Source: Escherichia phage BUCT789
Direction: 5' to 3' (one strand)
Sequence record: PQ999132.1
Length of the DNA stretch: 40,771 bases
The notes under the pieces are model-generated. The model saw only the letters and a list, made by a program, of their open reading frames with translations. It had not been told where the DNA came from and searched no databases. Shown here one piece after another: positions 597 through 38,512 of the stretch. A program made the position numbers and the translations under genes. Position 1 is the first letter of the stretch, and each line of letters opens with the position of its first letter.

Positions 597-2855
597 CTAT
601 TCCAAATCTTCCTCGGTCGCTATCAGCATCTCATTCGGTTCGTATATCGTCTTCGGTCTTAATCTGTCCCCCATCTTTTCAGGTATCCGGTATGTGCCTG
701 GTATAACTTCACCGTTAACATCGCACCCGAGCATCAACTCACCGTCTTTCAGCATCTTCTCAAGATGGTGGTTGGTGATGGCGTGGTCCCCCGAGTTCGC
801 CACTATCTGCCGTTGGGTGAAACCTCGTCCGGTGTCGTCTGACTGTTGCAGGTCTTCCAACGCGGCAAGTATTGATTCCTTACGCCCTTCATCCTTCCCA
901 CGTTTTACCGCGTTCTTTACGTTTTCTTTACCTTCTTTCGTCAGCCCTTCTTCCCGCTCTTTCTCCTCGTCAGTCTTGAACGGCTCGAAGCCCCACGGCA
1001 TCAGTACAAGCGCCTTGTGTGGTTCTGGCAGGTCGAGGTTTACGATTGTGCCATATTCCTCTGTGCTACCGAGGAACTCAACCGCGCGGTACTCTTTCGG
1101 CGGCGGCGCTTCACGGAACTGTACCGACTCCAGCACCATGCCAACCGTCTTCTGTTGAGGCCCATGCTTAAATTTCGAGTGGTATACGTTTATCTGGCGG
1201 TCGGTAGCGCGCTCAATTGTCAGCTCCACATCAACACCGGCATACAGCGCCCCGCTACCACGGGCTTTCTTTCCACCCTTAGGCGTATGGTGGACGACAC
1301 CCACAGCGGCTTTAGTTGCGTCGCGTACTTTTTTAAGGATGGCGATAACTTTACCCATGCCAATTGCAGTTGATGAACTGTTCTCGTCGAACTTGTCAAT
1401 TGTCAGGGCCAGCGTCTGGTTGAGGGTATCGAACGCGACCATACCAATAGGCTCGTCCCCTGCAGCTTCACGCATCCTGCGGATTAGCGCGGGGATTTTT
1501 TTATCACCATGCGCGGCGAGCACCTCACCCATATCAATGACATGTACGTAATCTTTACCTTCCTCGCCATATTTAGCCGCGAGTGCATCTATACGTGTGC
1601 GGGTAGCTGCGCCGCCCTCACCGTCGATATAAAAATGGTGGCAACGCTGCGTATCAGCTCCCGCAAACCGGTATCCGGCGGCGCTCAGGTACATCATCCC
1701 CAGCGTATAGAACGATTTGTACGTGCCGGATTCCCCAACAATATCCCAGATGCAATCTGACGGCATGTACCCCTCAACGACGAAATCAGCCTTTACCGGT
1801 TCAGGTAGCTCGTCCTCTTCTGAGTCATCATCGTCTTCCAGGTCGTCGAGGCTGCATGAAACAGATTCACGCACACCCCATCCGATAGCCTCGGCGACTT
1901 CACTGAACGGCAGCCCGGTCGCATCACACGCGTATTTCCACACTTCTTTCGGGGGCATTCCTTCGGTCGCGGCAATGTCGGTGTCGTGAATCATGGTTAC
2001 GTTCGGCGCTTCGTATCCCTCGCGCGGGAAACATAACAGGAAGTCGTCCGGGCGTGGTGTCGGGTCGCTGTAGTTTTCTGCGTGTTCTGGCGTAGCTGGC
2101 ATCTTAAGGCCACGCGGCGTCATGATGCCGCCGTACTCGAATGCCAGTGCTTCAAACGCATCTGTAAACGCGGTGCGCAGTTCTTCCGGTATCTGGTAAT
2201 CAGATGCGCTGCTGATGTCAACGGCTGGGACGCCTTCCAGTAACTCATCAGGGTCAATCAGGTCGTTGCGGCGCGACCAGATAACGGTAGCGCCGACAGG
2301 AGGCAAGTACATCGGCTGCGAAAGAGTGAACCCGCTGCGGTCGGCGCCCATGCCTTTGAAGAAGTGTTCCAGTAACCCATGACGAACGCGGATGATGTCA
2401 CCGCCTTCAACCGGGCTGGCCAGCGGCATGACGACACGAAAGCGCGGTGACTCATCTGTATGTGACGCCGTGGTATACAGGCACATCGCCCGGCGGCTAC
2501 GCTTAACCAGGCGCACCGCTTCTTGATACTCTTCCGGTGTTGCACTGTCGAAGTCCAGATACGCCAGCGACGATTTGCTTACAGACGCGTCACAGCGATA
2601 GAAGAAGCCTTTACGCGCTTGCTTAAAGTCACCGGTTTCCGGGTCTTTTACGGTGCTGTGCGTAGAGTCGCACGCGGCTGTGATATAGCCGGGGGCGGTC
2701 TTCGGGTTAATCCCGTCGCGAACGGCATCGAGCGGCTGAATTAACTCTTTCAGGTCGTCCAGTGTTGCCGTGTGTGTGGTTCTGACGTTTATATCCTTTT
2801 TCTCTGCCCGCGCGTTGCGACGTGACCACGAGTAGGATAAAATTACATCGGACAT
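597..2855 (-). CDS. DNA primase/helicase (RepA-like RecA-fold ATPase with N-terminal primase-like domain)
   Basis: 752 aa; Walker A GESGTYKS in the C-terminal half; large N-terminal domain; ends in EEDLE. Confidence 0.75.
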   Translation of the reverse strand: MSDVILSYSWSRRNARAEKKDINVRTTHTATLDDLKELIQPLDAVRDGINPKTAPGYITAACDSTHSTVKDPETGDFKQARKGFFYRCDASVSKSSLAYLDFDSATPEEYQEAVRLVKRSRRAMCLYTTASHTDESPRFRVVMPLASPVEGGDIIRVRHGLLEHFFKGMGADRSGFTLSQPMYLPPVGATVIWSRRNDLIDPDELLEGVPAVDISSASDYQIPEELRTAFTDAFEALAFEYGGIMTPRGLKMPATPEHAENYSDPTPRPDDFLLCFPREGYEAPNVTMIHDTDIAATEGMPPKEVWKYACDATGLPFSEVAEAIGWGVRESVSCSLDDLEDDDDSEEDELPEPVKADFVVEGYMPSDCIWDIVGESGTYKSFYTLGMMYLSAAGYRFAGADTQRCHHFYIDGEGGAATRTRIDALAAKYGEEGKDYVHVIDMGEVLAAHGDKKIPALIRRMREAAGDEPIGMVAFDTLNQTLALTIDKFDENSSSTAIGMGKVIAILKKVRDATKAAVGVVHHTPKGGKKARGSGALYAGVDVELTIERATDRQINVYHSKFKHGPQQKTVGMVLESVQFREAPPPKEYRAVEFLGSTEEYGTIVNLDLPEPHKALVLMPWGFEPFKTDEEKEREEGLTKEGKENVKNAVKRGKDEGRKESILAALEDLQQSDDTGRGFTQRQIVANSGDHAITNHHLEKMLKDGELMLGCDVNGEVIPGTYRIPEKMGDRLRPKTIYEPNEMLIATEEDLE

Positions 2856-2913
2856 GTTGTATTTCCTTCAGCAAGTAATTTGGCCTCGGCGTTCACCGCG
2901 TCGGGGCTTTCTT

Positions 2914-3147
2914 TTATTCCAGGTCTTCTAAAGTAGCGGTCATTCCGCGAACTTCAGCAACAGCACTATATTTCCCGCCAACATTCTTCACGACACCGGA
3001 TTTAACCAGTACCTTCAACGACCCTTCAATAATGGCGGAACTATAGTACCTAAAATAACTACGGCGCAAGTCCATAACGCTGCACGACCCTTTTTTACGG
3101 GTTAATGAAACGACTGCCGTAAATACGCGGGACTGGAACTCGGTCAT
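2914..3147 (-). CDS. hypothetical protein (77 aa)
   Basis: ORF overlaps the upstream gene stop by 4 nt (coupled); C-terminus LEDLE. Confidence 0.55.
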   Translation of the reverse strand: MTEFQSRVFTAVVSLTRKKGSCSVMDLRRSYFRYYSSAIIEGSLKVLVKSGVVKNVGGKYSAVAEVRGMTATLEDLE

Positions 3148-3347
3148 TTTACATTCTCCTTAATCCACGCTTCCACTTTCTCCGGGTCGAAAGTACCCGG
3201 CTGCCGGCGGCCCATAATACGGATACAACAATCCGGGAACTTCCCACTCTTTAACCAGTTATTCAGCGTGCGACGGGTAACCCCGATACGCTCGGCTACT
3301 TCATTCTGTGTCATTCTCAAATCCCCATTATCAGTTAACGAAAACAA
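3144..3347 (-). CDS. AlpA/excisionase-like HTH DNA-binding protein
   Basis: Motif MTQNEVAERIGVTRRTLNNWLKSGKFP; start may instead be the internal ATG at 3314, which has a GGGGA RBS. Confidence 0.65.
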   Translation of the reverse strand: MFSLTDNGDLRMTQNEVAERIGVTRRTLNNWLKSGKFPDCCIRIMGRRQPGTFDPEKVEAWIKENVK

Positions 3348-3748
3348 GTATACATTGCGAATAATGGGAAATCAAACATAATCGCACCTATTGACATTAT
3401 GAAAATCTTCGTTTAAGGTGCTTCTGTATCTTAGTTACTTTGATTCTTGTTCACCTTGTAAAACCCGCCGAAAACGAGCGCCCAACGCGAAGTGTTAGGC
3501 GGCAGTTTACTGAACATTCGAATTATCGTAACTTTCCTTCCTAAGTATCTCCGGTTGCCCTGGGCAAGCTCTATTCTCATCGACGGCATATCTCTTAAGT
3601 ATCTGATTTTCTTAATGTGCCGTAGATTCGCAACCGTAAAAATGTAACGATTAGTGGGCAGGCTTAAGGCCTGCCCTTTAGTTACCAAGTAATAAGAATA
3701 AAGGCACAACCCTCACTAAAGAACCACAACGGCAACGTAACTTTTCTC

Positions 3749-3777
3749 TTGCACACCCCAACATAATAGGATACTAT
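3749..3777 (+). promoter_or_regulatory. promoter, TTGCAC-N17-TACTAT with conserved spacer ATAATAGG
   Basis: TTGCAC 3749-3754, TACTAT 3772-3777; conserved leader TTATCGAAACGAG then RBS GAGGAG; near-identical copies at 5188-5216 and 22864-22892. Confidence 0.55.
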
Positions 3778-3811
3778 TCACTTATCGAAACGAGACAGAG
3801 GAGTGAGGGTT

Positions 3812-4003
3812 ATGTTTAAACGTGGTCAGTTGGCTAAAACGAAGCGAGGCGAACAGTACGTAATAGTGTTGCAGGACGAGAACGAGTATGACGAGGATAA
3901 GCTGGTTGACGTATGGGGTCTGGTAAGAAAGAAACCCGGGTTCGCCTTACGCGATAATCTGAAACTCATCGGCAACAATTTTAAATTCAAAGGGGTGAAG
4001 TGA
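3812..4003 (+). CDS. hypothetical protein
   Basis: ATG 3812 with GAGGAG RBS; track ORF 3803..4003 uses an upstream GTG. Confidence 0.6.
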   Translation: MFKRGQLAKTKRGEQYVIVLQDENEYDEDKLVDVWGLVRKKPGFALRDNLKLIGNNFKFKGVK

Positions 4004-4257
4004 TGGAAGAATTAATTTGTATTGAATCCAGCCAGGATGTGCAGGATTGGTTTGTTAAAGGTAACAGATATTCGTCCGGAGTATATTCCGACGGCCGTCG
4101 ATATGTTTTAGACGAAGACGGTGATGAATGGGATTTAAATGACGATGTAAGAGAAACTTTAACCGTTAGCAGGGTCAATGCTGTTTCTGCCTCATTCACA
4201 ACGGCATCGAATCATGATGCTCGTGCCGACGACTCTGAGGGAGGTTGCCGTGAATAA
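4003..4257 (+). CDS. acidic hypothetical protein
   Basis: ATG overlaps the upstream stop (TGATG); D/E-rich product. Confidence 0.6.
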   Translation: MEELICIESSQDVQDWFVKGNRYSSGVYSDGRRYVLDEDGDEWDLNDDVRETLTVSRVNAVSASFTTASNHDARADDSEGGCRE

Positions 4258-4305
4258 TTACCCGTTTATTTTAATAGTCAGCGCCGTTTATGTGGTGCAT
4301 GCGTT

Positions 4306-4539
4306 ATGGGGGCCGGTATGAGAAAACACATAATAAAGGTAGACCATCTGGACGGAGTTAAATTGCCGACGAATAAAGTAGAAACGTGGTGTGGGGCCAC
4401 TCCATCGTACGGTGAATGGCTGTTCCAGGATGCTCAACACGCCTTAATTGCTGTAGAAAACGGATTCAGGCAAGAGCCTTGCGCACAGTGTTTATCCGCT
4501 ATCGCCCAGATCGCAACTCAGGCGTTAAGTGAGGACTAA
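4306..4539 (+). CDS. hypothetical protein
   Basis: 77-aa ORF; alternative ATG at 4318. Confidence 0.55.
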   Translation: MGAGMRKHIIKVDHLDGVKLPTNKVETWCGATPSYGEWLFQDAQHALIAVENGFRQEPCAQCLSAIAQIATQALSED

Positions 4540-4542
4540 GTT

Positions 4543-4686
4543 ATGAGAGAAGCATTCGAACGGTGGGCCGTCGTCGAGGGTCTGCCGGTTAACAAGGGTT
4601 CGAAGAAAGAGTACCTGAACGTTAAGACGCGTCTCGCGTGGCGGGCGTGGAAAGCTGGTGTGTTGTTTATCGCGAATCGGAGGTGA
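4543..4686 (+). CDS. small hypothetical protein (47 aa)
   Basis: ATG 4543 with GAGGA RBS; fills the gap between flanking genes; stop 3 nt before the next ATG. Confidence 0.4.
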   Translation: MREAFERWAVVEGLPVNKGSKKEYLNVKTRLAWRAWKAGVLFIANRR

Positions 4687-4689
4687 TTT

Positions 4690-4875
4690 ATGGGTGAGTG
4701 GATTAAGTGTAGTGAGCGGATGCCTGAGCCTTATGAATACGTTCTTGTAACTGATTGTTTTGTTGGCTGTGAGGTTATGCGTGTTAATTCAGATGGCTAC
4801 TGGGGGCCTGCAAAGAGTTTATATCACGGTGATATAACGCACTGGATGCCGTTACCTGAGCCGCCGGAGGTGTGA
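4690..4875 (+). CDS. DUF551-like small phage protein
   Basis: 61 aa with EW...PE...VLV...HWMPLPEPPE pattern recalled for DUF551; not verified by search. Confidence 0.55.
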   Translation: MGEWIKCSERMPEPYEYVLVTDCFVGCEVMRVNSDGYWGPAKSLYHGDITHWMPLPEPPEV

Positions 4876-5009
4876 TGTTCAATAGTTTGGGATTTTACTG
4901 AGTGACTTACGCTGCTACACAGCAGCGTACAACTTTAGATTAGTGTCGTCAAAAAGCGACACTTTCACCAAACGCAACAATAGAAGCGACTATTGCAGGA
5001 GATGCAACA

Positions 5010-5180
5010 ATGAAACTGAATGACATCGTAACCTGGACTGGTAGAAACGGAGAAAAGCGATTCGGGCTTATTGTTGCGTCAGACGGCAACAAGTACCGTG
5101 TTATGCGATGGCGTCAGTGGGCACGACGCCCGAGGTACTACTGGATTCGTGGCGAACGATTATCTTTAAAACACCAATAA
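5010..5180 (+). CDS. small hypothetical protein (56 aa)
   Basis: ATG 5010 preceded by AGGAG; lies upstream of the 5188 promoter copy. Confidence 0.45.
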   Translation: MKLNDIVTWTGRNGEKRFGLIVASDGNKYRVMRWRQWARRPRYYWIRGERLSLKHQ

Positions 5181-5187
5181 AATTTAC

Positions 5188-5216
5188 TTGCACACACAGA
5201 TATAATAGACTACTAT
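5188..5216 (+). promoter_or_regulatory. promoter, TTGCAC-N17-TACTAT (second copy)
   Basis: TTGCAC 5188-5193, TACTAT 5211-5216; same spacer core and TTATCGAAACGAG leader as 3749-3777. Confidence 0.55.
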
Positions 5217-5245
5217 TCAGTTATCGAAACGAGAGGAGAGAGAAG

Positions 5246-5383
5246 ATGGGCTGGTACGGTAGCTGGGCATTAGGTGAACTGGTAGACGCTTACGAAATAA
5301 TGGGTAGCACTTCGGTATGCGACGGTGACACTAAATCGCTGCTAGTCGGGGTCGATGAGAAAAGGGGTGAAGACGATGAATAA
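5246..5383 (+). CDS. small hypothetical protein (45 aa)
   Basis: ATG 5246 after RBS GAGAGGAGAG; the upstream part of track ORF 5108..5383 is promoter sequence. Confidence 0.45.
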   Translation: MGWYGSWALGELVDAYEIMGSTSVCDGDTKSLLVGVDEKRGEDDE

Positions 5384-5531
5384 TTTCGTGGTGCAAGCAA
5401 TGTACGCTGAGGAAATGGCAAAAAGTATGTTAGAGCAAACATTACATTTCGCTAAGCTGCAAGGGTTCGACGTACAGACAGTAGGCGACGAAATAGTATT
5501 GACCGAGAAGTCGGAGAACGGCGATGAGTAA
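5376..5531 (+). CDS. small hypothetical protein (51 aa)
   Basis: ATG 5376 with AAGGGG RBS; overlaps neighbours at both ends. Confidence 0.4.
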   Translation: MNNFVVQAMYAEEMAKSMLEQTLHFAKLQGFDVQTVGDEIVLTEKSENGDE

Positions 5532-5883
5532 CAATGACGCAGTAATCGAGTTCCTGTTTAACCAACTACAGCAGCAGCTAACGAACAACCCATACAAGCA
5601 ACAGTGTGAAGACCTGGCGCATGAGGTGCAGTCACTTAAGAATCAGTTACGCGATATGTCGGAGCTGGTGGATGCGCTACCGGGGACGATAACGTTAATG
5701 AACGGGAAATCTAGTTGCCGTAAAGAAGACGCGCAGGAATGCGAGCATGATTGGTTGCATAGTAAACACAAAAGCGGCTTCGTTTGCTTTAAGTGTGGGG
5801 CGCGCGAAGAGTGTGAACACGATTGGTACTTTTACGATAAAGGCGCGTCGATGATGTGCAAGAAATGCGGGCTGAAGAAATGA
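5524..5883 (+). CDS. zinc-ribbon protein with two CEHDW...CxKCG units
   Basis: 119 aa; ECEHDW...CFKCG and ECEHDW...CKKCG repeats; paralogous unit in 8369..8608. Confidence 0.65.
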   Translation: MSNNDAVIEFLFNQLQQQLTNNPYKQQCEDLAHEVQSLKNQLRDMSELVDALPGTITLMNGKSSCRKEDAQECEHDWLHSKHKSGFVCFKCGAREECEHDWYFYDKGASMMCKKCGLKK

Positions 5884-6083
5884 CCAGCATCCTCTTTATC
5901 TGGGTACTGTCCGCAGGCCAGATGCAACTGGCGGCAGCAGAAACGTTTTATTCGATGGAGGCGTGCCAGTCAGCGGCACGCGCCGCAGAGAACGCGCACT
6001 TCCTGTTTCAGGGCGACAAGCCCAACGATTCAGAGGTACGCGCTATCTGCTCACCTAAGCGACTTGGTAAACAGGAGAGATAA
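5880..6083 (+). CDS. small protein with N-terminal hydrophobic segment
   Basis: ATG 5880 overlaps upstream stop (ATGA); N-terminus MTSILFIWVLSAG. Confidence 0.5.
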   Translation: MTSILFIWVLSAGQMQLAAAETFYSMEACQSAARAAENAHFLFQGDKPNDSEVRAICSPKRLGKQER

Positions 6084-6376
6084 TGTCTCTTGCAACTGAC
6101 ATCCTGAAACGAAGCGGCCTTGCGCCGCTGTCACCGAGAGCGAAGACACGTATACACAAGCGTCGCCGTAACGTGCTGTACCCAGAGATACAAGAACGGC
6201 GTAAAGCTATCCGCGCCTGTGGATTCCAGAACGGAAAGGCCGTGAATCTCGGTGAGTTTAAAACACAGGAACGCGCAGCTATCGCTAATCGGCTATTTAA
6301 TTACTGGAAATCGCTGGGGTACGATGATATTCCGACGAAACCGCAGAGACGGCAATACATCTGGAGACACAAATAA
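6083..6376 (+). CDS. basic hypothetical protein (97 aa)
   Basis: ORF directly after the previous stop; K/R-rich. Confidence 0.55.
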   Translation: MSLATDILKRSGLAPLSPRAKTRIHKRRRNVLYPEIQERRKAIRACGFQNGKAVNLGEFKTQERAAIANRLFNYWKSLGYDDIPTKPQRRQYIWRHK

Positions 6377-6385
6377 ACCGTTATT

Positions 6386-6446
6386 AGGATAATTCCTACC
6401 CGTGGTATCCTCCAGTTACTGCATACTTAATACGCACCTGGAGGAT
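6386..6446 (+). promoter_or_regulatory. alternative RNA hairpins over the holin ribosome-binding site
   Basis: Perfect 9-bp inverted repeat atcctccag (6407-6415) / ctggaggat (6438-6446), the latter containing the holin SD; competing aggata (6386-6391) / tatcct (6406-6411) pairing. Confidence 0.45.
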
Positions 6447-6451
6447 TCATC

Positions 6452-6760
6452 TTGGATAAATTTACTGAAACAGTGACGGGCTGGCTTCTCGCTGCCGCAC
6501 TCGCCGGAGGGGTCATCGGACTACGACAACATAAGTCCGTTATTTCTGGCCCTATCGACGGCTTCTGCTTCATCGCTACTGGTTTCGCCTGCGCCGTATT
6601 TGGCGCCCCTCTTGCAGCTCAATGGTTCGGTATCACGGGCGACCGTGAAATCGCTGGCCTGGGCTTTATCATCGCTATTCTCTGGATGCCTATTTATTCC
6701 CGTCTCTCCGGTATTGTTGCCGGAGAATACATCTCACGTCGAGGAGGCCCGGATGAATGA
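6452..6760 (+). CDS. holin (class I-like, three predicted TMDs)
   Basis: TTG start 7 nt after GGAGGA; three hydrophobic segments; directly upstream of the endolysin. Confidence 0.65.
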   Translation: MDKFTETVTGWLLAAALAGGVIGLRQHKSVISGPIDGFCFIATGFACAVFGAPLAAQWFGITGDREIAGLGFIIAILWMPIYSRLSGIVAGEYISRRGGPDE

Positions 6761-7025
6761 GTTATTCTGGTTCGGCGGTATGCTGGCAATAGGGGGTACA
6801 TCGCTGTTTAATGTGTATCACCCCAGCGTTGACGATGGGCTATTTGGTCGTGTGCTCTATATCCTGACAGCTATCGTCTGCGCCGCCGGGTGTATCCACC
6901 TGTTACAGGGCAGCATGTCGCCCACGTTGCCTGAGACATTAATCACATTAGTTGCACTGCGCCAGATTCGCCAGGCGTGGCTGTCATATGGAGGACATAA
7001 GCGTGTCTCGAAACATTTCAGATAA
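6753..7025 (+). CDS. small membrane protein (second holin or antiholin candidate)
   Basis: ATG 6753 overlaps the holin stop (ATGAATGA); two hydrophobic segments; part of track ORF 6600..7025. Confidence 0.5.
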   Translation: MNELFWFGGMLAIGGTSLFNVYHPSVDDGLFGRVLYILTAIVCAAGCIHLLQGSMSPTLPETLITLVALRQIRQAWLSYGGHKRVSKHFR

Positions 7026-7488
7026 TGGATTGCATTTTACCGCTGCGTTCGAGGGATTCCGCGGAACTGCGTATCGTGCTACGCCTAACGAGAAGTACCT
7101 TACTATAGGCTACGGGCACTATGGGCCTGACGTAACCCCGGGTAAGACCATCACACCGGGACAGGGCTTGCTGTTACTGAATCGCGATATGGCTAAGGCT
7201 GTAGCTGCTGTTGACGCAGCAGCACACCATTCACTGACACAGGCACAGTTCGATGCAGTGTGCGACCTGGTATATAACGCAGGTGCTGGTGTGATTGGGG
7301 TTACTACCGGAACCGGTAAGGCGCTACATAGCGGTGATATTTCGACGCTGCGGGCTAAACTGGCGCTGTTCATCAACCAGAACGGCAAACCGTTACTCGG
7401 CCTGCGTCGCCGTACCGCAGGCCGCCTGGCGCTGTTCGATGGCAAGCCGTGGCAAGAGGCTGAGGCTATCGGGAGGGCTGTTAAATGA
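6988..7488 (+). CDS. endolysin, GH24 lysozyme-like muramidase
   Basis: FEGFRGTAYR...LTIGYGH matches the T4/lambda lysozyme catalytic region; no N-terminal signal-anchor. Confidence 0.8.
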   Translation: MEDISVSRNISDNGLHFTAAFEGFRGTAYRATPNEKYLTIGYGHYGPDVTPGKTITPGQGLLLLNRDMAKAVAAVDAAAHHSLTQAQFDAVCDLVYNAGAGVIGVTTGTGKALHSGDISTLRAKLALFINQNGKPLLGLRRRTAGRLALFDGKPWQEAEAIGRAVK

Positions 7489-7615
7489 TGGACGAATATG
7501 AAGGCGTTTAGTAAACTTATCCCTACGCTGTTTGTGCTTGCATACTAAGCCCCGGTAAACCCGAAGCAGCAGCCCAAGCGGTGGAGACTGCGTAGGGTTC
7601 AGGGGCTTATGACCG

Positions 7616-7645
7616 AAACCCGGACCGCGAATCCGGGTTTTATTT
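7616..7645 (+). terminator. rho-independent terminator
   Basis: cccgg/ccggg stem followed by ttttatttt. Confidence 0.6.
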
Positions 7646-7651
7646 TACCAA

Positions 7652-7680
7652 TTGACACCTAAGACTAATCCGACGATACT
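7652..7680 (+). promoter_or_regulatory. sigma70-like promoter, TTGACA-N17-GATACT
   Basis: TTGACA 7652-7657, 17-nt spacer, GATACT 7675-7680; only about 45 nt upstream of a terminator. Confidence 0.4.
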
Positions 7681-7686
7681 TAAATC

Positions 7687-7750
7687 ACCTCCTGTTCCAT
7701 CCCTCTGCTCTCCAGTTTTATCCCGGCCCTGACCCAGCCGGGATTTTTTT
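7687..7750 (+). ncRNA. candidate small RNA (about 60-65 nt) between promoter and terminator
   Basis: No ORF; contains AUCACCUCCU resembling the 16S rRNA 3' end, then terminator hairpin. Confidence 0.3.
7720..7750 (+). terminator. rho-independent terminator
   Basis: atcccggc/gccgggat stem followed by a 7-T tract. Confidence 0.65.
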
Positions 7751-7772
7751 ATCTGTTTTCCACAATGACTAG

Positions 7773-7801
7773 TTGACTATTACCATCGACCCTATTATAT
7801 T
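7773..7801 (+). promoter_or_regulatory. sigma70-like promoter, TTGACT-N17-TATATT
   Basis: TTGACT 7773-7778, exact 17-nt spacer, TATATT 7796-7801; drives the 7835-9589 small-gene block. Confidence 0.55.
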
Positions 7802-7834
7802 TACTCCATCGACAACGAGAACGGAGTATAGAAG

Positions 7835-7984
7835 ATGAAAATCACAGATATCGAAGCATTCAAAGACGCACAACTGATGGCACGTATCGCCGTTAGTAAC
7901 CTTAGTAGCAGTATCCCCGCTGACGCGTTCTGGTTCGCAGCGATGCAGACCCTGAAAGCAGCTTATGCAGGAGAGAAGAAATGA
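7835..7984 (+). CDS. small hypothetical protein (49 aa)
   Basis: ATG 7835 after GGAG; ends GEKK with GGAGAGAAGAAATGA junction into the next gene. Confidence 0.45.
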   Translation: MKITDIEAFKDAQLMARIAVSNLSSSIPADAFWFAAMQTLKAAYAGEKK

Positions 7985-8133
7985 GCGAACAAGGTCAGGT
8001 AAGCCAACCGTTACGAGTAGGCCGTAAAGTCAGTCACACCCCGTTCCCTACACGCGAGGAACTGATGAAACGTAACAGTTTCCCTGGGCCGGACAAGAAC
8101 AAGTATCTCAATCGCATGTGGGGAGAGAAGAAA
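7981..8133 (+). CDS. small hypothetical protein (50 aa)
   Basis: ATGA-coupled to neighbours; the same GGAGAGAAGAAATGA junction recurs at its 3' end. Confidence 0.45.
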
Positions 8134-8369
8134 TGACTGACCGTGAATACGAAAAGATGATGGTAGAGGCTGTTAACGGCGGCATAGACATCAGCCACGT
8201 GATGCACGTCCTGAATACTAAAATCGCTGTAGCGGAGCAAATGGTTGAGTCGCTTTATGAGACGCGCCGTGAACTGATTAACCGCTTCAACCTGAACAAA
8301 CCTGCTCCTACTAACGACGATTTTGATGGCGATTACAGAAATGGTGATTTTTATGAGGGAGCAGAATAA
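8130..8369 (+). CDS. acidic hypothetical protein
   Basis: ATG 8130; track ORF 8118..8369 starts at an upstream non-ATG codon. Confidence 0.55.
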   Translation, partial: EMTDREYEKMMVEAVNGGIDISHVMHVLNTKIAVAEQMVESLYETRRELINRFNLNKPAPTNDDFDGDYRNGDFYEGAE

Positions 8370-8608
8370 TGCCTAAAATCACAATCGCATCACTCGAGCG
8401 TCGTATTCTGGTGCTTGAGTCAGAGAAACAGACGTTAGGCGGGCAACTGTCAATTAATGGTGAGTTTCAACTGGAGGCGTTTAAGTTGTTGCTTGATAAG
8501 TTGAAAGCGGACGAAAAGCCTTGCGAGCACGATTACTACCTACATGTGGTTGGTGGATTACATCGGGCCACGTGCATCAAATGCGGTAAAGCGTATGGAG
8601 TCGCCTAA
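8369..8608 (+). CDS. zinc-ribbon protein (CEHDY...CIKCG), paralog of 5524..5883
   Basis: 79 aa; N-terminal coiled-coil-like region then PCEHDYY...CIKCGK. Confidence 0.6.
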   Translation: MPKITIASLERRILVLESEKQTLGGQLSINGEFQLEAFKLLLDKLKADEKPCEHDYYLHVVGGLHRATCIKCGKAYGVA

Positions 8609-8777
8609 GCCGGTAGTTATTGAGGGCGTCCTGTGGAAACCTTACTCGGTTAACCACATCGACGCCGACGGGAAGAAGTTCAGCTTCTACATTTTTGCAA
8701 TTAGCCGGGAGCACGCCGCTTGTGTGGTAGACGATATACGAGAAACGGCGTGGCTTGGTGATGAGATAGTGGGGTGA
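8595..8777 (+). CDS. hypothetical protein
   Basis: Likely ATG at 8595 inside track ORF 8544..8777; overlaps the upstream stop. Confidence 0.45.
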   Translation: MESPKPVVIEGVLWKPYSVNHIDADGKKFSFYIFAISREHAACVVDDIRETAWLGDEIVG

Positions 8778-8781
8778 GGGT

Positions 8782-9063
8782 ATGGCGCGTACTGTTTCCG
8801 CGAGATTCACTGATATTGAATCTGCGATAGAAGAAGCCGTTTACAGTAGATTCTGTAACCCATCTGCGGTGCATAACTACGGGGTTATCATTAAATACGG
8901 CAAGTTTGAAATCAGGAGAGTGCGCGCCGGTCGTCCGCACGAGTTTTTATGGACTACAGAAAGCCTCATCCCTCGATGTCACGTTTACACAAGCGGTGCA
9001 CATACTATTTTTGTAGGCCTGGACAAGAAAGATATTACTGTCACTAAAGGAGAGACAAATTGA
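8782..9063 (+). CDS. hypothetical protein (93 aa)
   Basis: ORF with GGTGAGGG RBS-like sequence upstream. Confidence 0.55.
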   Translation: MARTVSARFTDIESAIEEAVYSRFCNPSAVHNYGVIIKYGKFEIRRVRAGRPHEFLWTTESLIPRCHVYTSGAHTIFVGLDKKDITVTKGETN

Positions 9064-9296
9064 TTACCAGCATCCCTAAACTGATCGAAGAGTACGGCAA
9101 TATGTCTGAGACATGCCGACAAACCGGCATCAGCGAAATGACGATTGCGAAGTACCGCAACGACGTGAACTGCGAGCGACATGTAATTTATAACAACCGT
9201 CTGATGACACACGTTAAGACAAGCCCGGTGTTATTCACGCGCCGTGGTATCACTAAAACAGAGCAACGTATTGCTAAAGAGGAGAGTGGGGAATGA
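9060..9296 (+). CDS. small HTH-like protein (possible regulator)
   Basis: HTH-like stretch SETCRQTGISEMTIAKYRN; TTG start at 9060 or internal ATG at 9102. Confidence 0.45.
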   Translation: MITSIPKLIEEYGNMSETCRQTGISEMTIAKYRNDVNCERHVIYNNRLMTHVKTSPVLFTRRGITKTEQRIAKEESGE

Positions 9297-9589
9297 GTGA
9301 GATGAAACCTTGCAGATGTTGTGGCATTAAACAAAGCCCGGTTGATGAAAAGAACGCTGAATACGAAACACTCGTCAGCTTAGTGCTTCAATGTGGTGAT
9401 GAGAAGCAATTATTGACTCTTATCGACATTATGCGGTCCAAGATAACAACCTGTGTATCGTCGTCTGACCCTAACAAACTGCCGTACCCTGATAAAGAGT
9501 TGTGGCACGTACGAATCATGGTTGATGCTGTTATGATTTTGCAGGATAAGTTATTAACCCGTAGTATGCGAAAGGAGGGCGGGGAATGA
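9293..9589 (+). CDS. hypothetical protein (98 aa)
   Basis: ATGA-coupled to upstream gene; Cys-rich N-terminus (CRCCG). Confidence 0.55.
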   Translation: MSEMKPCRCCGIKQSPVDEKNAEYETLVSLVLQCGDEKQLLTLIDIMRSKITTCVSSSDPNKLPYPDKELWHVRIMVDAVMILQDKLLTRSMRKEGGE

Positions 9590-13116: not shown

Positions 13117-13136
13117 AGCCCCGAAAGGGGCTTTCT
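13117..13136 (+). terminator. intra-operon hairpin (attenuator-like) after the portal gene
   Basis: gcccc-gaaa-ggggc followed by tttctt. Confidence 0.4.
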
Positions 13137-13142
13137 TATAGT

Positions 13143-14219
13143 ATGCTATTAACTTTAGCGCCACAGGGTTTATCTATGAGCTTACTTACATCACTAATCA
13201 GCCACCAGATATGGCTGCAACGCACCGCTTCCGGTGAGGTGAAAGACCTCGCGCCGTTCATTCAGGAAATGCGGGACGAAATCAAACGGCAGGTTCTGCT
13301 ATTCGGCGACGACGGGCGAAGCACTGCGCGACTGAATAGACTGTTACGCGACCTCGAAGAAGCACTGGCAGGACTTACAGGCGACTGGCAAACAAAGCTG
13401 ACAGAAGACCTTAAGGCGCTGGCGGCGTATGAGGCTGAGTGGAACGTAAAAACGCTGACGGCTAACGTTAACGCTGAATTTGTTACACCTACCGCCGAGC
13501 AGGTGTGGTCCGCTGCCGAGTTTCAGCCATTATCATTAAGTGATAAGCCGGTTGACTTCACTAAGCTGATGGATGGCTGGGGTGAAACAGAAGTATCGCG
13601 CCTGGTAACCGGCGTTAAGATGGGCTTTGTACAAGGCCAGACAACACGGCAGATTGTTAAGAATGTCGTTGGCGCTGGTGGGCTGGCGGACATCTCTGAG
13701 CGTAACGCGGCTACGGTAATCCGCACTGCGCTGTCTCACGTATCCAACGAAGCCCGTAACGAGACGTACCGCCAGAACGACGACATCATCGAGAAGTACG
13801 AGTGGGTGTCGACGCTGGACAGCCGTACCAGTACGATTTGCAGGGCCAGAGACGGAATGACGTGGGAAATCGGTAAAGGGCCAATGCCCCCCGCCCATCC
13901 GAACTGCCGGTCGTGTACGGCTCCGGTAATAAGTTCCGAGTTCGACTTCCTCGATAAAGGAGCGAAACGCGCGGCTAAGGGTGCAGAAGGAGGAACTCAG
14001 GTAAGCGCGGACACAACCTATTACGAGTTCCTCAGACAACAACCGGCGTGGTTTCAGGACCAGGCGCTCGGCCCTGTTCGCGGTAAGATTTTCCGTAACA
14101 GCGGTATATCGCCGGAAGAGTTTCGCGTAATATCTGTAGATGGTTTCGGGAATCCGCTCACGCTTAAGCAGATGGCGGAACTCGATAAACGTGTTGCTGA
14201 TTATCTGAAAGGGGATTAA
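13143..14219 (+). CDS. head morphogenesis protein (Mu F / SPP1 gp7-like minor head protein)
   Basis: 358 aa; conserved-looking region CRARDGMTWEIGKGPMPPAHPNCRSC; position after portal. Confidence 0.75.
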   Translation: MLLTLAPQGLSMSLLTSLISHQIWLQRTASGEVKDLAPFIQEMRDEIKRQVLLFGDDGRSTARLNRLLRDLEEALAGLTGDWQTKLTEDLKALAAYEAEWNVKTLTANVNAEFVTPTAEQVWSAAEFQPLSLSDKPVDFTKLMDGWGETEVSRLVTGVKMGFVQGQTTRQIVKNVVGAGGLADISERNAATVIRTALSHVSNEARNETYRQNDDIIEKYEWVSTLDSRTSTICRARDGMTWEIGKGPMPPAHPNCRSCTAPVISSEFDFLDKGAKRAAKGAEGGTQVSADTTYYEFLRQQPAWFQDQALGPVRGKIFRNSGISPEEFRVISVDGFGNPLTLKQMAELDKRVADYLKGD

Positions 14220-14680
14220 TGATGGGCTTTTTCAAAGTAACTGATGTACCTTCACGTCGCGTAGTCCAGTACGCCCGCGTGTCTGGCTCTGGTGAGAACG
14301 TGGTGTTTATTGATGATGAAAGTGTACTCGGTACACCCGTAGACGATATGCCGTTTGCAGATAAAACCGGTATTGCGTTACCCGCGGCGGGCATGCTTTA
14401 TGAAATTCCGTATCTGGCTGATGCTGGCGATGTGTATTTCTCGGTGCAACCGCAGGACGCTGAACTGGCAGACGGCAGCGCCACTATCACTGTCGAGGTT
14501 AAGGCGGGCAAAGCACCATACGCGCTGACCTGGTACAAAGACGGTAAGGAAGTGGTAAACGCCCCAGAAGAGGCTTTGTCTCTGACTGTTAATGCGGTGG
14601 GTGAATACTTCGTTAAAGTTACCGATGCCGATGGTGTAGAGGCGGTAAGCAAAGCGGCGAAGGTTAATAAGCCAGAATAA
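14219..14680 (+). CDS. hypothetical protein with Ig-like C-terminal region (possible capsid decoration)
   Basis: 153 aa; C-terminal TITVEVKAGKAPYALTWYKDGKEV...YFVKVTDADG; TAATG overlap with upstream gene. Confidence 0.55.
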   Translation: MMGFFKVTDVPSRRVVQYARVSGSGENVVFIDDESVLGTPVDDMPFADKTGIALPAAGMLYEIPYLADAGDVYFSVQPQDAELADGSATITVEVKAGKAPYALTWYKDGKEVVNAPEEALSLTVNAVGEYFVKVTDADGVEAVSKAAKVNKPE

Positions 14681-14686
14681 ACTGAA

Positions 14687-14705
14687 GCCCCGAAAGGGGC
14701 TTTTT
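14687..14705 (+). terminator. rho-independent terminator
   Basis: gcccc-gaaa-ggggc followed by ttttt. Confidence 0.65.
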
Positions 14706-14755
14706 AGCGCCTGCGATTATTCCAGTTATTCCACCGAATTGTAAATGTTGGAATA

Positions 14756-14771
14756 AACTATTCGAATAGTT
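14756..14771. promoter_or_regulatory. perfect 16-bp palindrome AACTATTCGAATAGTT overlapping a -35 element (operator candidate)
   Basis: Exact inverted repeat; shares the ACTATTC core found at the TACTAT promoters. Confidence 0.45.
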
Positions 14772-14798
14772 GACTTTTCACTGAAAATGTGCTAAGCT
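14770..14798 (+). promoter_or_regulatory. sigma70-like promoter, TTGACT-N17-TAAGCT
   Basis: TTGACT 14770-14775, 17-nt spacer, TAAGCT 14793-14798. Confidence 0.45.
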
Positions 14799-14804
14799 CC
14801 ACCT

Positions 14805-15005
14805 GAGCTTGTGAAGTATGAACAAGCGACCGCGGCGCGGGCAGGTAACGGAGCGGGACGTAAGTCCTGAGTGTAGTTACGCTGACGCGTTCGGAAGGGC
14901 CATACTCTATTGCTTGTGTAAAAAGTAACTGGTTTACTGAGATTACGCCGTTTCTATGTTTAAATGATAAGGACTAGCGCCCCGCTTTATGGCGGGGCTT
15001 TACTT
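14805..15005 (+). ncRNA. candidate non-coding RNA (about 200 nt) between promoter and terminator
   Basis: Only a 36-codon ORF without convincing RBS; GC-rich self-complementary stretches; ends in terminator hairpin 14979-15005. Confidence 0.3.
14979..15005 (+). terminator. terminator-like hairpin
   Basis: gccccgc-tttatg-gcggggc followed by tttactt. Confidence 0.45.
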
Positions 15006-15022
15006 ATCGAGAAAGGAGAAAC

Positions 15023-15409
15023 ATGAATCTTAAAGCAACTGTCGTAGCAGGAGCATGTTTCATCATCCTGTTATACACGCACGGCTACTATCAATACCGC
15101 AGCGGCTGGAACGGAGGCAGGGCTAATCTAGTTTCGCAGCAACAGCAGAAAGCACAGGCTGAGTTAGCGAAGAAAACACAACGGCAGCAGCAGGACGAAT
15201 CAAAGGCCGCCGCCGCTGACAGCGAAGGCAAGACGAAATCAGAGGTGATTACCCGTGAAGTCGTTAAGTACATTAAAACGCCTGGCCGCAGCGTGTGCAC
15301 TTTCGACGATGCTCGCGTCCTGCTCAAGTCCCGCGCCGTCGCAAACGCCAATTCCATCCCCGGATACGACGATGATGCAGCCGCCATGCAAACTGGCCGC
15401 GCCAAGTAG
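15023..15409 (+). CDS. Rz: Rz-like i-spanin
   Basis: 128 aa; AAGGAG RBS; N-terminal TMD then Q/A/K-rich coiled-coil region; contains the Rz1 gene in the +1 frame. Confidence 0.75.
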   Translation: MNLKATVVAGACFIILLYTHGYYQYRSGWNGGRANLVSQQQQKAQAELAKKTQRQQQDESKAAAADSEGKTKSEVITREVVKYIKTPGRSVCTFDDARVLLKSRAVANANSIPGYDDDAAAMQTGRAK

Positions 15410-15518
15410 CGATGCCGATGAGGATTTAGCCATTGACGTTCAGAACACAGAATGTGTACGGCAACTGCGTCTGAAAGTGTTCATGTTGCAGGATTACGTG
15501 AGGAATATTCTGGAATAG
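15255..15518 (+). CDS. Rz1: Rz1-like o-spanin (outer-membrane lipoprotein)
   Basis: GTG start with GAGGTGA RBS; signal peptide with lipobox LASC; Pro-rich mature part; begins inside Rz and extends past its stop. Confidence 0.7.
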   Translation: MKSLSTLKRLAAACALSTMLASCSSPAPSQTPIPSPDTTMMQPPCKLAAPSSDADEDLAIDVQNTECVRQLRLKVFMLQDYVRNILE

Positions 15519-15597
15519 TTGCCTTGTATGTTGGAATAATTTATTCTTGACATGTAAATCCGGGTGGCCCGGATTCCAACGTCCAGGGGACATACTG

Positions 15598-16224
15598 ATG
15601 AGCGAAGAAGTGAAAGACGAAACTATCGAACAACAAGAGACTAAGACCACGTTTACCAAAGAAGAAGTTGACGCGCTGGTATCCGGTCTTAAAGCTAACA
15701 ACGAGAAACTCTTGTCTGAAAAGAAAGCTGCTGCCGCTGCCGCTAAAGAAGCCGCAGATGCGAAGCTGAAAGCCGAACAGGAACGCGCAAAACAGAACGG
15801 CGAACTTGAGGCATTCGAGAAAACGTTGCGCAGTCAGTATGAGCCAGTACTCGCCGAGAAAGACGGTAAGATTAGCAAAATGGCTGAGCGTATCCTCGGC
15901 GCAGAACGTAAATCAGTTATCAGCCAGTTGTCTGGCATGTTGATTGATGAGAGCGCAGCGGATATCATCGCTATGATGGTCAAGACCGAATTTGACGGCG
16001 ATGACGTTGTGACCAAGTTCACAGGTGCAGACGGTAATGTCATCACCACCGACGCAGAGCAATTTAAAAAGTATCTGCGTGAGCACAAAGCATTTTCGCA
16101 TCTGATTAAAGCAGATGCAGCAACCGGCGGCGGGGCTTCCGGTAACAAAAATTCTACTGGCGGGGCCGGTGGTGCGGACGTAATCCAGCAAAAACTTAAC
16201 GCCAAATACGGCAAACGAGGGTAA
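15598..16224 (+). CDS. scaffolding protein (putative)
   Basis: ATG 15598; A/K/E-rich coiled-coil sequence; directly upstream of the major capsid gene. Confidence 0.6.
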   Translation: MSEEVKDETIEQQETKTTFTKEEVDALVSGLKANNEKLLSEKKAAAAAAKEAADAKLKAEQERAKQNGELEAFEKTLRSQYEPVLAEKDGKISKMAERILGAERKSVISQLSGMLIDESAADIIAMMVKTEFDGDDVVTKFTGADGNVITTDAEQFKKYLREHKAFSHLIKADAATGGGASGNKNSTGGAGGADVIQQKLNAKYGKRG

Positions 16225-16230
16225 CAGAAT

Positions 16231-17199
16231 ATGTCTCTGTCAGATATGAAGGTTTATAACGACGACATCGTCGGTACCACTATTGAACTGCTTGGCCAGA
16301 AAACTGACCAGTTTAACGCAGCCTCCGGTGGTGCAATTGTACTGTCTACCGCTTCATGGCGCGGTGACTTCTCCCGTGAGTCTTTCTTTAACCAGATTGC
16401 CTCCGCTAAACGCCGCGTTGACCGTTACGCCGCTATCGCGTCTCAGGCAGCTACCGCGCTGACTCAGGGCGAGCATGTAGGCGTTAAAGTCGCTGGCGGC
16501 TTCGGACCGGTACTGTTCGAGCCTGCGCAAATGACCTGGCTTAACGAAGACCCGGCAAGCGCGATTCGTGCTATTTCCGAAGGCTTCTCTGACGCACTGT
16601 TAGCGGACCAGCTCAACACCGCTGTTGGCGCAGCTGTTGCGGCGGTATCTGGTCAGGCCGCGCTGGTTAACGACGTATCTGCAACCGTGGGTCTGTCCCT
16701 GAACGTGCTGAACAACAGCCACGCTAAATTCGGCGACCAGTCTCAGCTGCTGATTGCCGACATCATGACTGGTGCTGCTTATCACACGCTGGTAGATAAA
16801 GCGCTGACTAACGCAAACCAGCTGTTCGTTGCTGGTAACGTTATGGTTGTCGATGTTCTCGGCAAGCGTTACGTAATCTCTGACATTCCTGCGCTGTACG
16901 AGGCCGGTACTCCGAACAAGACTAAGGTCCTATCCGTAGTTGCAAACGGCATCATCGTTGACAATGCTTCTGACATTATCAGCAACATTGACACCAGCAA
17001 CGGTAACACCCGCATTCAGACCACTTGGCAAGCGGATTACAGCTTCGGCCTGAAACTGAAAGGCTATAGCTGGGATGTTGCCAACGGCGGTAAATCTCCA
17101 CTGGACGCAGAACTGTTCACCGCGACCAACTGGGACAAAGCTGTTGCTGAGAACAAACACACCCTCGGTACTCTGGCAATCGCCGACGCGGACAAGTAA
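16231..17199 (+). CDS. major capsid protein
   Basis: 322 aa; follows scaffold; followed by a strong terminator hairpin. Confidence 0.8.
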   Translation: MSLSDMKVYNDDIVGTTIELLGQKTDQFNAASGGAIVLSTASWRGDFSRESFFNQIASAKRRVDRYAAIASQAATALTQGEHVGVKVAGGFGPVLFEPAQMTWLNEDPASAIRAISEGFSDALLADQLNTAVGAAVAAVSGQAALVNDVSATVGLSLNVLNNSHAKFGDQSQLLIADIMTGAAYHTLVDKALTNANQLFVAGNVMVVDVLGKRYVISDIPALYEAGTPNKTKVLSVVANGIIVDNASDIISNIDTSNGNTRIQTTWQADYSFGLKLKGYSWDVANGGKSPLDAELFTATNWDKAVAENKHTLGTLAIADADK

Positions 17200-17220
17200 T
17201 ACGGTTGGAGTAAAAACAAA

Positions 17221-17240
17221 GGGGCTACGGCCCCTTTTTA
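17221..17240 (+). terminator. rho-independent terminator after the major capsid gene
   Basis: ggggc-tacg-gcccc followed by ttttt. Confidence 0.65.
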
Positions 17241-17256
17241 CTAGGAGAAATTAAAG

Positions 17257-20898: not shown

Positions 20899-20918
20899 GG
20901 CCCCGAAAGGGGCCTTTT
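20899..20918. terminator. bidirectional rho-independent terminator
   Basis: ggcccc-gaaa-ggggcc with T-runs on both strands; identical 29-nt copy at 32709-32737. Confidence 0.7.
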
Positions 20919-38422: not shown

Positions 38423-38479
38423 CGTGATTTCTCGCTTTTCAGTTTCGTTTACTCCGGGAGCTGCCCGGCCAGTGATTTA

Positions 38480-38508
38480 ACTATAATAGTTAGCTATTCA
38501 GGAGTCAA
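38480..38508 (-). promoter_or_regulatory. sigma70-like promoter, TTGACT-N17-TATAGT (minus strand)
   Basis: + strand agtcaa 38503-38508 and actata 38480-38485, 17-nt spacer. Confidence 0.5.
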
Positions 38509-38512
38509 CACT

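Follow-up and report, generated by a model that had tools for sequence, protein, structure and literature searches.

An overlapped Rz/Rz1-type spanin pair between the head genes of Escherichia phage BUCT789, distant from holin and endolysin

Described spanin pairs and the locus of BUCT789

The closest described system is the 'Jersey' family of i-spanins and o-spanins, which comprises 27 members, is placed in the overlapped class and includes the pairs of K1G, K1H, K1ind1-3, Jersey, SETP3 and HK578 (Kongari et al., 2018; PMC6139136). The family is characterized by a 155-bp overlap of the two genes and by constant o-spanin cysteines, Cys45 and Cys67. Three 'separated' members with an 8-bp overlap are discussed in the same paper, in which the overlapped class of spanin genes was also defined (PMC6139136). 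In a genome note from 2019, the holin and endolysin of such a phage were described as genetically separate from the spanins (PMC6763661), and in the paper on phage Golestan the holins and endolysin are ORF66-68 and the spanins ORF7-8. The T4 spanin genes PseT.3/PseT.2 are also located away from the holin (t) and endolysin (e) genes, and a C-terminal helix is predicted in their o-spanin (PMC6139136). Split lysis genes thus have published precedents in T4 and in Guernseyvirinae. No published experiment on the function of the Jersey spanin family was found, and the assignment as spanin rests on signals, homology and genomic context.

The window, i.e. the whole stretch of 40,771 nucleotides that was analysed (PQ999132.1), is a complete siphophage genome in which bases 1-127 recur at 40645-40771. 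Sequence comparison places it in the genus Kagunavirus, subfamily Guernseyvirinae, as a K1H-like E. coli phage. The 3-kb stretch around Rz and Rz1 is matched by 305 phage records and is 95-96% identical to that of Escherichia phages K1H, UTI-CM001, phiSD1 and others. The i-spanin (Rz-like) gene occupies positions 15023..15409 of the plus strand, starts with ATG and encodes 128 aa, and the o-spanin (Rz1-like) gene occupies positions 15255..15518 of the same strand, starts with GTG and encodes 87 aa. With its start 232 nt into Rz, Rz1 is read in the +1 frame; it overlaps Rz over 155 nt and continues for another 109 nt after the stop of Rz. Upstream of the pair are a head morphogenesis gene (13143-14219) and the gene of a Hoc-like decoration protein (14219-14680), and downstream are the scaffold gene (15598-16224) and the gene of the major capsid protein (16231-17199). 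The overlapping frames are found exactly at the coordinates given in an earlier note on this DNA, and so is the position between head-morphogenesis and scaffold genes that it described.

Both genes carry plausible translation signals on the plus strand, read directly from the sequence. The Shine-Dalgarno motif AAGGAG (15013..15018) precedes the Rz ATG, in front of which AAAGG.GA is invariant among relatives, and GAGGTG (15242..15247) lies 7 nt before the Rz1 GTG. According to hydropathy, the sole hydrophobic segment of Rz is N-terminal (aa 1-22), with a transmembrane helix at about aa 3-22, which suggests a single N-terminal transmembrane domain and a periplasmic remainder; Cys92 is found in this predicted periplasmic part. 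Rz1 has a 22-aa signal peptide (MKSLSTLKR / LAAACALSTML / LASC) with a basic n-region and an 11-aa h-region. Its lipobox, LASC (aa 20-23, nt 15312-15323), fits the signal peptidase II pattern [LVI][ASTVI][GAS]C, and Cys23 is the predicted lipidated residue. The mature N-terminus would be Cys-Ser-Ser, with no Asp at position +2, as expected for sorting to the outer membrane. Between Cys23 and Cys45 a Pro-rich linker holds 7 prolines among 23 residues, so that both the lipobox and the richness in proline pointed out earlier are present. Two further cysteines of Rz1, Cys45 and Cys67, are conserved among relatives and, together with Cys92 of Rz, are periplasmic residues available for intermolecular disulfides. 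The o-spanin gene is also placed as in known pairs, in which it is embedded in the i-spanin gene, overlaps it or follows it immediately.

The family searches point in the same direction. Rz matches phrog_2536 'Rz-like spanin' (E=1.8e-55), and Rz1 matches phrog_5672 (E=3.6e-30) and phrog_1267 (E=8e-18), PHROG families that are also annotated 'Rz-like spanin'. Identity to the K1H proteins annotated as spanins is 93% for Rz and 90% for Rz1, and identity to Jersey-type loci is 63-66%. The K1H pair (4838-5224 and 5070-5333), flanked by the Hoc-like gene and the scaffold gene, carries the spanin annotation in RefSeq, the same annotated layout is found in phage Jersey, and in Dhillonvirus KarlBarth the i- and o-spanin genes directly follow a minor capsid gene. 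Homologues of Rz were found by tblastn in 625 phage records. The spanin identity proposed for the two proteins is thus upheld by the PHROG families, by the K1H annotation and by the Jersey family (PMC6139136). In Pfam, neither Rz nor Rz1 had a match above the cut-offs, and sub-threshold hits were noise (e.g. DUF2514 with 15.4 bits against a cut-off of 26); in NCBIfam nothing relevant was found for either protein. Since no match to the lambda Rz/Rz1 models was obtained in either database, the pair should be regarded as a functional analogue of the lambda proteins and not as their sequence relative.

With a probability of about 0.9, the pair is a Kagunavirus two-component spanin that belongs to the published 'Jersey' family and has its overlapped architecture. 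BUCT789 is the same as this family in the proteins, in the 155-bp overlap, in Cys45/Cys67 and in the position between Hoc-like and scaffold genes. Compared with K1H, nothing of substance differs except the lipobox, which is LASC in BUCT789 and LSAC in K1H, with the cysteine shifted by one residue. The likeness to lambda Rz/Rz1 consists in an N-terminal anchor in the inner membrane and a small outer-membrane lipoprotein that is rich in proline and encoded by the +1 frame, and the mechanism is presumed to be the same. However, there is no detectable sequence relation with the lambda pair, the BUCT789 Rz1 is overlapped instead of embedded and has a confident C-terminal helix, and the pair is not adjacent to the holin and endolysin genes. 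The P2 genes LysB/LysC are overlapped as well; their o-spanin begins within the i-spanin gene, in its +1 frame, and continues beyond its stop codon. The architecture is shared with P2, but the sequence family is different and the P2 pair is located inside the lysis cassette. T4 PseT.3/PseT.2 resemble the BUCT789 pair in being unlinked to holin and endolysin and in the predicted C-terminal helix of the o-spanin, but differ in their separated genes, unrelated sequence family and genomic context.

By analogy with the lambda Rz/Rz1 model (summarised in PMC6139136), Rz would be anchored in the inner membrane via its N-terminal helix, and Rz1, after export and lipidation at Cys23, would be directed to the outer membrane, into its inner leaflet. 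Binding of the two proteins through their periplasmic C-terminal regions, with the conserved helix on the Rz1 side, would bridge the periplasm in a complex probably stabilised by disulfides between the conserved cysteines. Once soluble lysozyme set free by the holin has degraded the cell wall, the spanin complex would fuse both membranes and thereby complete lysis.

The location of the pair between structural genes, away from holin and endolysin, and the unmatched Pfam models of lambda Rz/Rz1 could also indicate envelope proteins that serve a different purpose, for instance in superinfection exclusion or as a head- or assembly-associated lipoprotein. Such a role is very unlikely. The locus has the full spanin signals, in that the gene of a type II membrane protein is overlapped at its end by that of an outer-membrane lipoprotein which has cysteines in the periplasm. 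Around the endolysin gene no second spanin candidate was noticed, and unlinked spanins have a published precedent in T4 (PMC6139136). Moreover, Klebsiella phage Kp4882-1 has an Rz of 38% identity, overlapped by a +1 Rz1, before HNH and terminase genes; immediately upstream of this pair are a membrane ORF of holin size and an ORF resembling lysozyme, as judged from the translations of an unannotated record. The Kp4882-1 arrangement reads as a canonical lysis cassette, and this context supports a lysis role of the spanin pair.

Because the pair is annotated in K1H and Jersey and has been published (PMC6139136, PMC6763661), the finding is already known in all its parts, and neither the spanin pair nor its separation from the other lysis genes is new. 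The value of the spanin pair lies in correct annotation only; in many relatives the o-spanin is annotated as a truncated 48-aa ORF without a signal peptide, or both genes are annotated as hypothetical.

Conservation of the second reading frame

An open +1 run of at least 89 codons was obtained in 363 of 2000 synonymous-codon shuffles in which the Rz protein was kept (18%). The open +1 frame alone is therefore not beyond chance, and the case for a real Rz1 gene rests on the comparison with relatives and not on the length of the ORF. The sequences compared were 50 in number, i.e. the window, 47 IMG/VR loci, K1H and phiSD1, with Rz identities from 94% down to 63%. A second frame not conserved in related phages had been named in the earlier note as the result that would speak against the pair; on the contrary, the +1 frame is open in 49 of the 50 sequences, over the whole range of Rz identity, and ends 106-112 nt past the Rz stop. 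All 49 keep the lipobox cysteine (in LASC, LSAC, LSGC or LNGC), the motif QPPCK and the second cysteine, and the GTG start of Rz1 in the window aligns with ATG in several Jersey-type loci. The exception, L037, carries a recombinant Cornellvirus-type module in which the homologous o-spanin is an almost separate gene, with the lipobox ITGC and a 14-nt overlap with Rz; the situation in Salmonella virus VSiP is similar, with an overlap of 8 nt.

The codon pattern of the variation was also considered. In the 109-nt tail that belongs only to Rz1, nucleotide diversity at Rz1 codon positions 1, 2 and 3 is 0.095, 0.039 and 0.274, respectively. This distribution is the signature of a translated frame, and the Rz1 tail therefore appears to be translated. 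Within the overlap, the variation in the part coding for the signal peptide is patterned by the Rz frame, and in the part coding for mature Rz1 all three codon positions are under constraint. That the +1 ORF is only a chance open frame inside and beyond Rz, and no gene, might be argued from the 18% of shuffles with an alternative frame of similar length, but such a frame would not be expected to keep its reading, the lipobox cysteine and two further cysteines down to 63% Rz identity, nor to be seven times more variable at codon position 3 than at position 2 in the non-overlapping tail, nor to have a homologue that is a separate gene in Cornellvirus-type modules. On this comparative evidence from the relatives, the codon pattern and the separate-gene homologues, the chance-frame interpretation is already refuted and its probability is negligible.

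The secondary structures modelled by AF2 for Rz and Rz1 agree with the proposed spanin pair. The AF2 models were made from single sequences and are of low overall confidence, with a mean pLDDT of 61 for Rz and 58 for Rz1, yet they are informative. In the Rz model, a helix at 3-62 (pLDDT 70-90) is followed by low-confidence helices at 73-84 and 94-107 and by a disordered C-terminus. The Rz1 model consists of disorder over most of residues 1-51 and of a helix at 54-86 (pLDDT 80-95), which is encoded mostly beyond the Rz stop. With the predicted disorder at 1-51 and the helix at 54-86, the Rz1 residues encoded within the overlap would belong to the signal peptide and the Pro-rich linker only. As modelled, the overlap is confined to those parts of Rz1 that tolerate it, and the structured and best conserved portion is encoded downstream of the Rz stop codon.

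Distance from the holin-endolysin block and transcription units

The other lysis genes of BUCT789 are all on the plus strand, with start sites read from the sequence, and comprise a holin with 3 hydrophobic segments (6452-6760), a second holin-family protein (6753-7025) and an endolysin of the soluble lysozyme type without an N-terminal membrane segment (7003-7488; PF00959, E=4.7e-26). The family matches of the block 6452..7488 are phrog_2359, phrog_2508 and PF00959. The holin, membrane protein and endolysin were thus confirmed at the place given for them earlier and at a distance from the pair, with a gap of 7.5 kb: from the endolysin stop (7488) to the Rz start (15023) there are 7,535 nt and at least 17 ORFs. 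A canonical contiguous holin-endolysin-spanin cassette is not found in BUCT789.

The holin-endolysin unit and Rz/Rz1 are on the same strand, and five terminator-like hairpins are located between the endolysin stop and Rz (7616-7646, 7722-7750, 13117-13132, 14686-14705 and 14979-14998). The first of them, AAACCCGGA-N7-TCCGGGTTT followed by TATTTT (7616..7646, plus strand), was read from the sequence as a perfect 9-bp hairpin and is absent from the list of the terminator scan; it closes the holin-endolysin unit. Past the endolysin gene there are promoter-like sites at 7652-7680 and 7773-7801, between which lies the hairpin with T7 at 7722-7750. The hairpin after the Hoc-like gene (14686..14705; terminator scan, repeat families D2 and D4) is a bidirectional terminator hairpin, and its sequence recurs after the portal gene at 13117. 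A further terminator-like hairpin follows the capsid gene (17218). Several of the terminator-like hairpins lie only 10-20 nt before the ribosome-binding site of the next gene, and read-through must therefore be common in the BUCT789 genome. The lysis cassette and the spanin genes are plausibly separate transcription units, as the hairpins and promoters between them suggest.

The ORFs that flank the holin and endolysin genes have no known function. When 20 small ORFs were compared with PHROG in search of a late regulator or an antiterminator, one HTH protein (3144-3347, minus strand) was found; two of the remaining ORFs had no family match, the others belonged to families of unknown function, and no Q-like or N-like protein was identified among the 20. 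The only temporal RNA-seq of a Kagunavirus is that of K1B4, in which the lysozyme, the MuF-like head protein and the capsid were all assigned to the 'middle' class, at coarse time points and with the spanins unannotated (PMC12645636).

The earlier note had called the holin-endolysin block early and had concluded that the lysis functions are divided between two differently timed transcription units. Separate units are plausible from the hairpins and promoters. The label 'early' is not supported, given flanking ORFs without known function and a 'middle' lysozyme in K1B4, and the difference in timing is not supported either, with both loci on one strand. The transcription interpretation is therefore only partly supported, because the sequence holds no timing evidence and K1B4 classes the genes together (PMC12645636). 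An early holin and endolysin and late spanins would be consistent with the position of the lysis cassette among small ORFs without known function in the block 3803-9589, with the repeated promoter/operator elements that precede this block (3748-3795 and 5187-5234) and belong to the type present at the divergent control region, with the terminator-like hairpin that closes the lysis block, and with a promoter of Rz/Rz1's own that adjoins the capsid genes. However, holin-controlled lysis needs no early transcription, and, set beside the common class of the K1B4 genes, a lysis programme split in time is conceivable but rather unlikely.

Promoter, structured leader and hairpins around the pair

The gap between the Hoc-like gene and Rz is 342 nt in the window and at least 317 nt in all 51 loci in which both genes were found. 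In the aligned loci about 320 nt adjoining Rz are conserved, and the extra DNA of longer gaps is located upstream of that block; in the cases inspected (phiSD1, S103, L037 and VSiP) it carries reverse-strand genes. The conserved block includes a promoter, a leader and a hairpin, which are always found next to Rz. The promoter, read from the sequence, is sigma-70-like and consists of TTGACT, a 17-nt spacer and an extended -10, TGcTAAGCT (14770..14798, plus strand). It is the nearest one upstream of Rz, it is conserved between Kagunavirus and Jerseyvirus, and its -35 is adjoined by the palindrome CTATTCGAATAG (14758-14769). It is not listed by the promoter scan, because it falls below the scan's -10 threshold.

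The promoter is followed by a structured leader RNA, 'Module A' (14805..14906, plus strand), which gives a covariance model hit of 126 bits. It is composed of a hairpin on the 5' side and a long stem-loop with interruptions, behind which comes an invariant single-stranded AAGGGCC; in the stem, 14830-14838 is paired with 14887-14895. The covariance model has one match in the window and one or two in every Kagunavirus or Jerseyvirus locus searched, and it was unmatched in the Dhillonvirus, Klebsiella-phage and Cornellvirus loci searched. In an alignment that was itself fitted to the model, 93.6% of cells are paired and compensatory changes affect 13 of 29 pairs, compared with 1-3 in slid controls. 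Independent minimum-free-energy folds gave the Module A shape in 6 of 8 divergent variants. In some relatives Module A occurs a second time, with the same promoter, upstream of the first rightward gene in the divergent early control region.

Module A is unannotated in nearly all records. A search of the whole window against Rfam at gathering thresholds gave no hit and thus no family for Module A, the Rfam matches within 14650-15650 at E<=10 were at chance level only (E>1), and ARAGORN found no tRNA or tmRNA for the leader. In blastn searches against phages, the leader was found only in Escherichia, Salmonella, Shigella and Raoultella phages and in records named Kagunavirus, and it was unmatched in E. 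coli genomes. The other matches of a 15-mer scan of viral contigs share with the leader nothing beyond the 15-mer, and among the matches listed by a gapped-pattern scan of bacterial genomes there were only GC-rich chance ones, with covariance-model E>0.1. Three coding interpretations of the region were rejected. A 36-aa ORF at 14818-14928 is not conserved, its ATG being removed by an 11-nt deletion in Jersey-type loci; the 'gp08' annotated over the leader region in Jersey is frameshifted in 4 of 11 Jersey-type loci; and a mini-ORF after the SD-like GGAAGGG loses its UUG in L127.

An A/U-rich linker connects Module A with the terminator-like hairpin before Rz, GCCCCGC-TTTA-TGGCGGGGC followed by TTTACTTA (14979..15006, plus strand; terminator scan). 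This hairpin is G+C-rich, has compensatory changes in its stem and ends 17 nt before the Rz ATG; in Jersey-type loci the tail after it is only UUAGCGUAU. Its U-tract is imperfect, and the hairpin is therefore probably leaky. If it were an efficient terminator, Rz/Rz1 would depend on read-through or antitermination. Most likely, Rz/Rz1 would be transcribed from their own promoter at 14770-14798, through the leader of ~217 nt and the leaky hairpin, and the transcript would run on into the scaffold and capsid genes, barring an undetected stop.

A similar order of elements is known from other phages. In lambda, the promoter PR' is followed by a structured transcript of 100-200 nt (6S RNA) and the terminator tR', behind which S, R, Rz and Rz1 are the first genes. 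The put RNA of HK022 comprises two stem-loops, and each early operon has one put. The BUCT789 leader resembles lambda PR'-6S-tR' and HK022 put in layout only. The likeness to put consists in the two stem-loop elements of Module A and in the second copy that heads the early rightward operon of some relatives; no sequence similarity to lambda 6S or HK022 put is expected, and the Q-like or N-like partner is lacking among the proteins identified. The position and the covarying stem-loops of Module A fit a put-like cis-acting antiterminator, for which it may be a candidate. A broader proposal, that Module A is a new cis-acting regulatory RNA, acting either as a put-like antiterminator or as a riboswitch-like or attenuator leader and setting the expression of the spanin and capsid genes, is tentative and has less than even odds. 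If transcription through the hairpin toward the spanins and capsid is controlled by the leader, the latter would represent a new phage regulatory RNA, in phages whose group has found wide use in therapy and biocontrol. At this locus, the leader alone could matter beyond annotation.

The comparison of relatives also revealed a conserved element between Rz1 and the scaffold gene (15529..15575, plus strand), composed of TGTTGGAATAA, a palindrome, TTGACA and a hairpin. The palindrome is GAATAAtTTATTC (15534-15546), TTGACA directly follows it (15547-15552), and the hairpin is AATCCGGGtggCCCGGATT (15557-15575). The core of this element is invariant between Kagunavirus and Jerseyvirus, and the flanks of its hairpin covary.

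Leader upstream of the spanin genes and its second copy

Three features lie directly 5' of the i-spanin gene Rz, within 14770-15006. A promoter, TTGACT-17-TGcTAAGCT, is conserved; it is followed by an RNA domain of ~100 nt (14805-14906) that is structured and shows covariation, and a terminator-like hairpin (14979-15006) stands immediately before the gene. The RNA domain, which was present in all Kagunavirus and Jerseyvirus loci searched, is left without annotation in nearly all related records, and no Rfam family was matched by it. In some Kagunavirus genomes, both the promoter and the RNA domain occur a second time. In the relative L127 (8470-8720), and likewise in L072, L076, L078, L119, L120, and L132, this second copy is part of the divergent early control region and precedes the first early gene read rightwards; the 3' part of its RNA differs from that of the copy upstream of Rz. 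A second copy of the domain is absent from the window. The divergent early control region of the window contains the promoter-like sequence TTGACA-17-TAAGGT (within 3392-3685), followed by about 270 nt in which no convincing ORF was found; this stretch closes with the hairpin GGGCAGGCttaaGCCTGCCC and then TTT. Portions of 3392-3685 are similar to the second-copy RNA of L127, namely to its 3' part.

Operator-like repeats and the intervals flanking the spanin genes

Two families of repeated promoter-like elements were observed at 269-313, 3748-3795, 5187-5234, 34822-34866, and 38478-38522, and the palindrome AATAG-N4-CTATT is common to all elements of both. A related half-site, CTATTC/GAATAG, makes a 12-bp palindrome at 14758-14769, adjoining the -35 of the conserved promoter at 14770-14798. 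A single regulator might act both on the early promoters and on the spanin/capsid promoter.

The spacer between the Hoc-like gene and Rz also includes, within 14706-14769, an invariant ATTATTCCAGTTATTCC...TGTAAAT, which on the minus strand can be read as a promoter, TTTACA-18-TGgAATAAT (14745 to 14716), directed towards the terminator of the Hoc-like gene. Among relatives, the gap between these two genes ranges from 317 to 1117 nt, and in phiSD1, S103, L037, and VSiP it houses reverse-strand genes, one of which, in S103, encodes an adenine methyltransferase. On the other side of the spanin genes, the interval between Rz1 (the o-spanin gene) and the scaffold gene contains, within 15529-15575, the sequence TGTTGGAATAA, which recurs at 14746, and GAATAAtTTATTC, a perfect palindrome; a hairpin is also present there, and comparison of Kagunavirus with Jerseyvirus shows covariation in its flanks. 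The interval may thus combine an operator with an mRNA element. The scaffold gene 3' of it occurs as two alleles (identity of ~100% vs ~66%), and their junction falls immediately after this element.

Terminator-like hairpins and genome ends

Within 13117-13143, 14979-15023, and 17218-17256, a G+C-rich terminator hairpin is each time followed, after 10-20 nt, by a late gene's ribosome-binding site. AGCCCCGAAAGGGGCT occurs at two sites, 13117 and 14686, and the near-identical GGCCCCGAAAGGGGCC at 20899 and 32718. The recurrence of such hairpins just before late-gene ribosome-binding sites implies that the late genes would be subject to programmed partial termination or antitermination. The array 3' of the endolysin gene (7616-7801) comprises, in order, a terminator-like hairpin, the promoter-like site TTGACA-17-GATACT, a stretch of ~65 nt, a terminator-like hairpin with T7, and the promoter-like TTGACT-17-TATATT; a tiny RNA could be encoded at ~7687-7750. 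The window is an entire genome of ~40,644 bp whose record overlaps itself at the ends, with an exact 127-bp terminal duplication (1-127 = 40645-40771).

Spanin annotation and spanin modules in relatives

Several public records annotate the o-spanin from an internal Met (residue 40 or 41), as an ORF of 48 aa that leaves out the signal peptide and lipobox (L002, 3944-4090; L054, 2850-2996). The profile phrog_5672 (length 47) covers only residues 41-87 of the window's Rz1. A Cornellvirus-type spanin module is located at 3001-3589 of the Kagunavirus contig L037; the corresponding interval in L053 is 2501-3116. In L037, Rz has 118 aa, Rz1 has 81 aa with the lipobox ITGC, and the two genes overlap by only 14 nt. 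At its very end, this Rz1 reverts to Kagunavirus sequence, an indication of recombination within the spanin genes. In Klebsiella phage Kp4882-1 (L051), which is unannotated, a membrane ORF of holin size and a lysozyme-like ORF are followed, within 3251-4460, by Rz (38% identity to that of the window) and an overlapped +1 Rz1; this reads as a canonical lysis cassette. HNH and terminase genes are located 3' of it.
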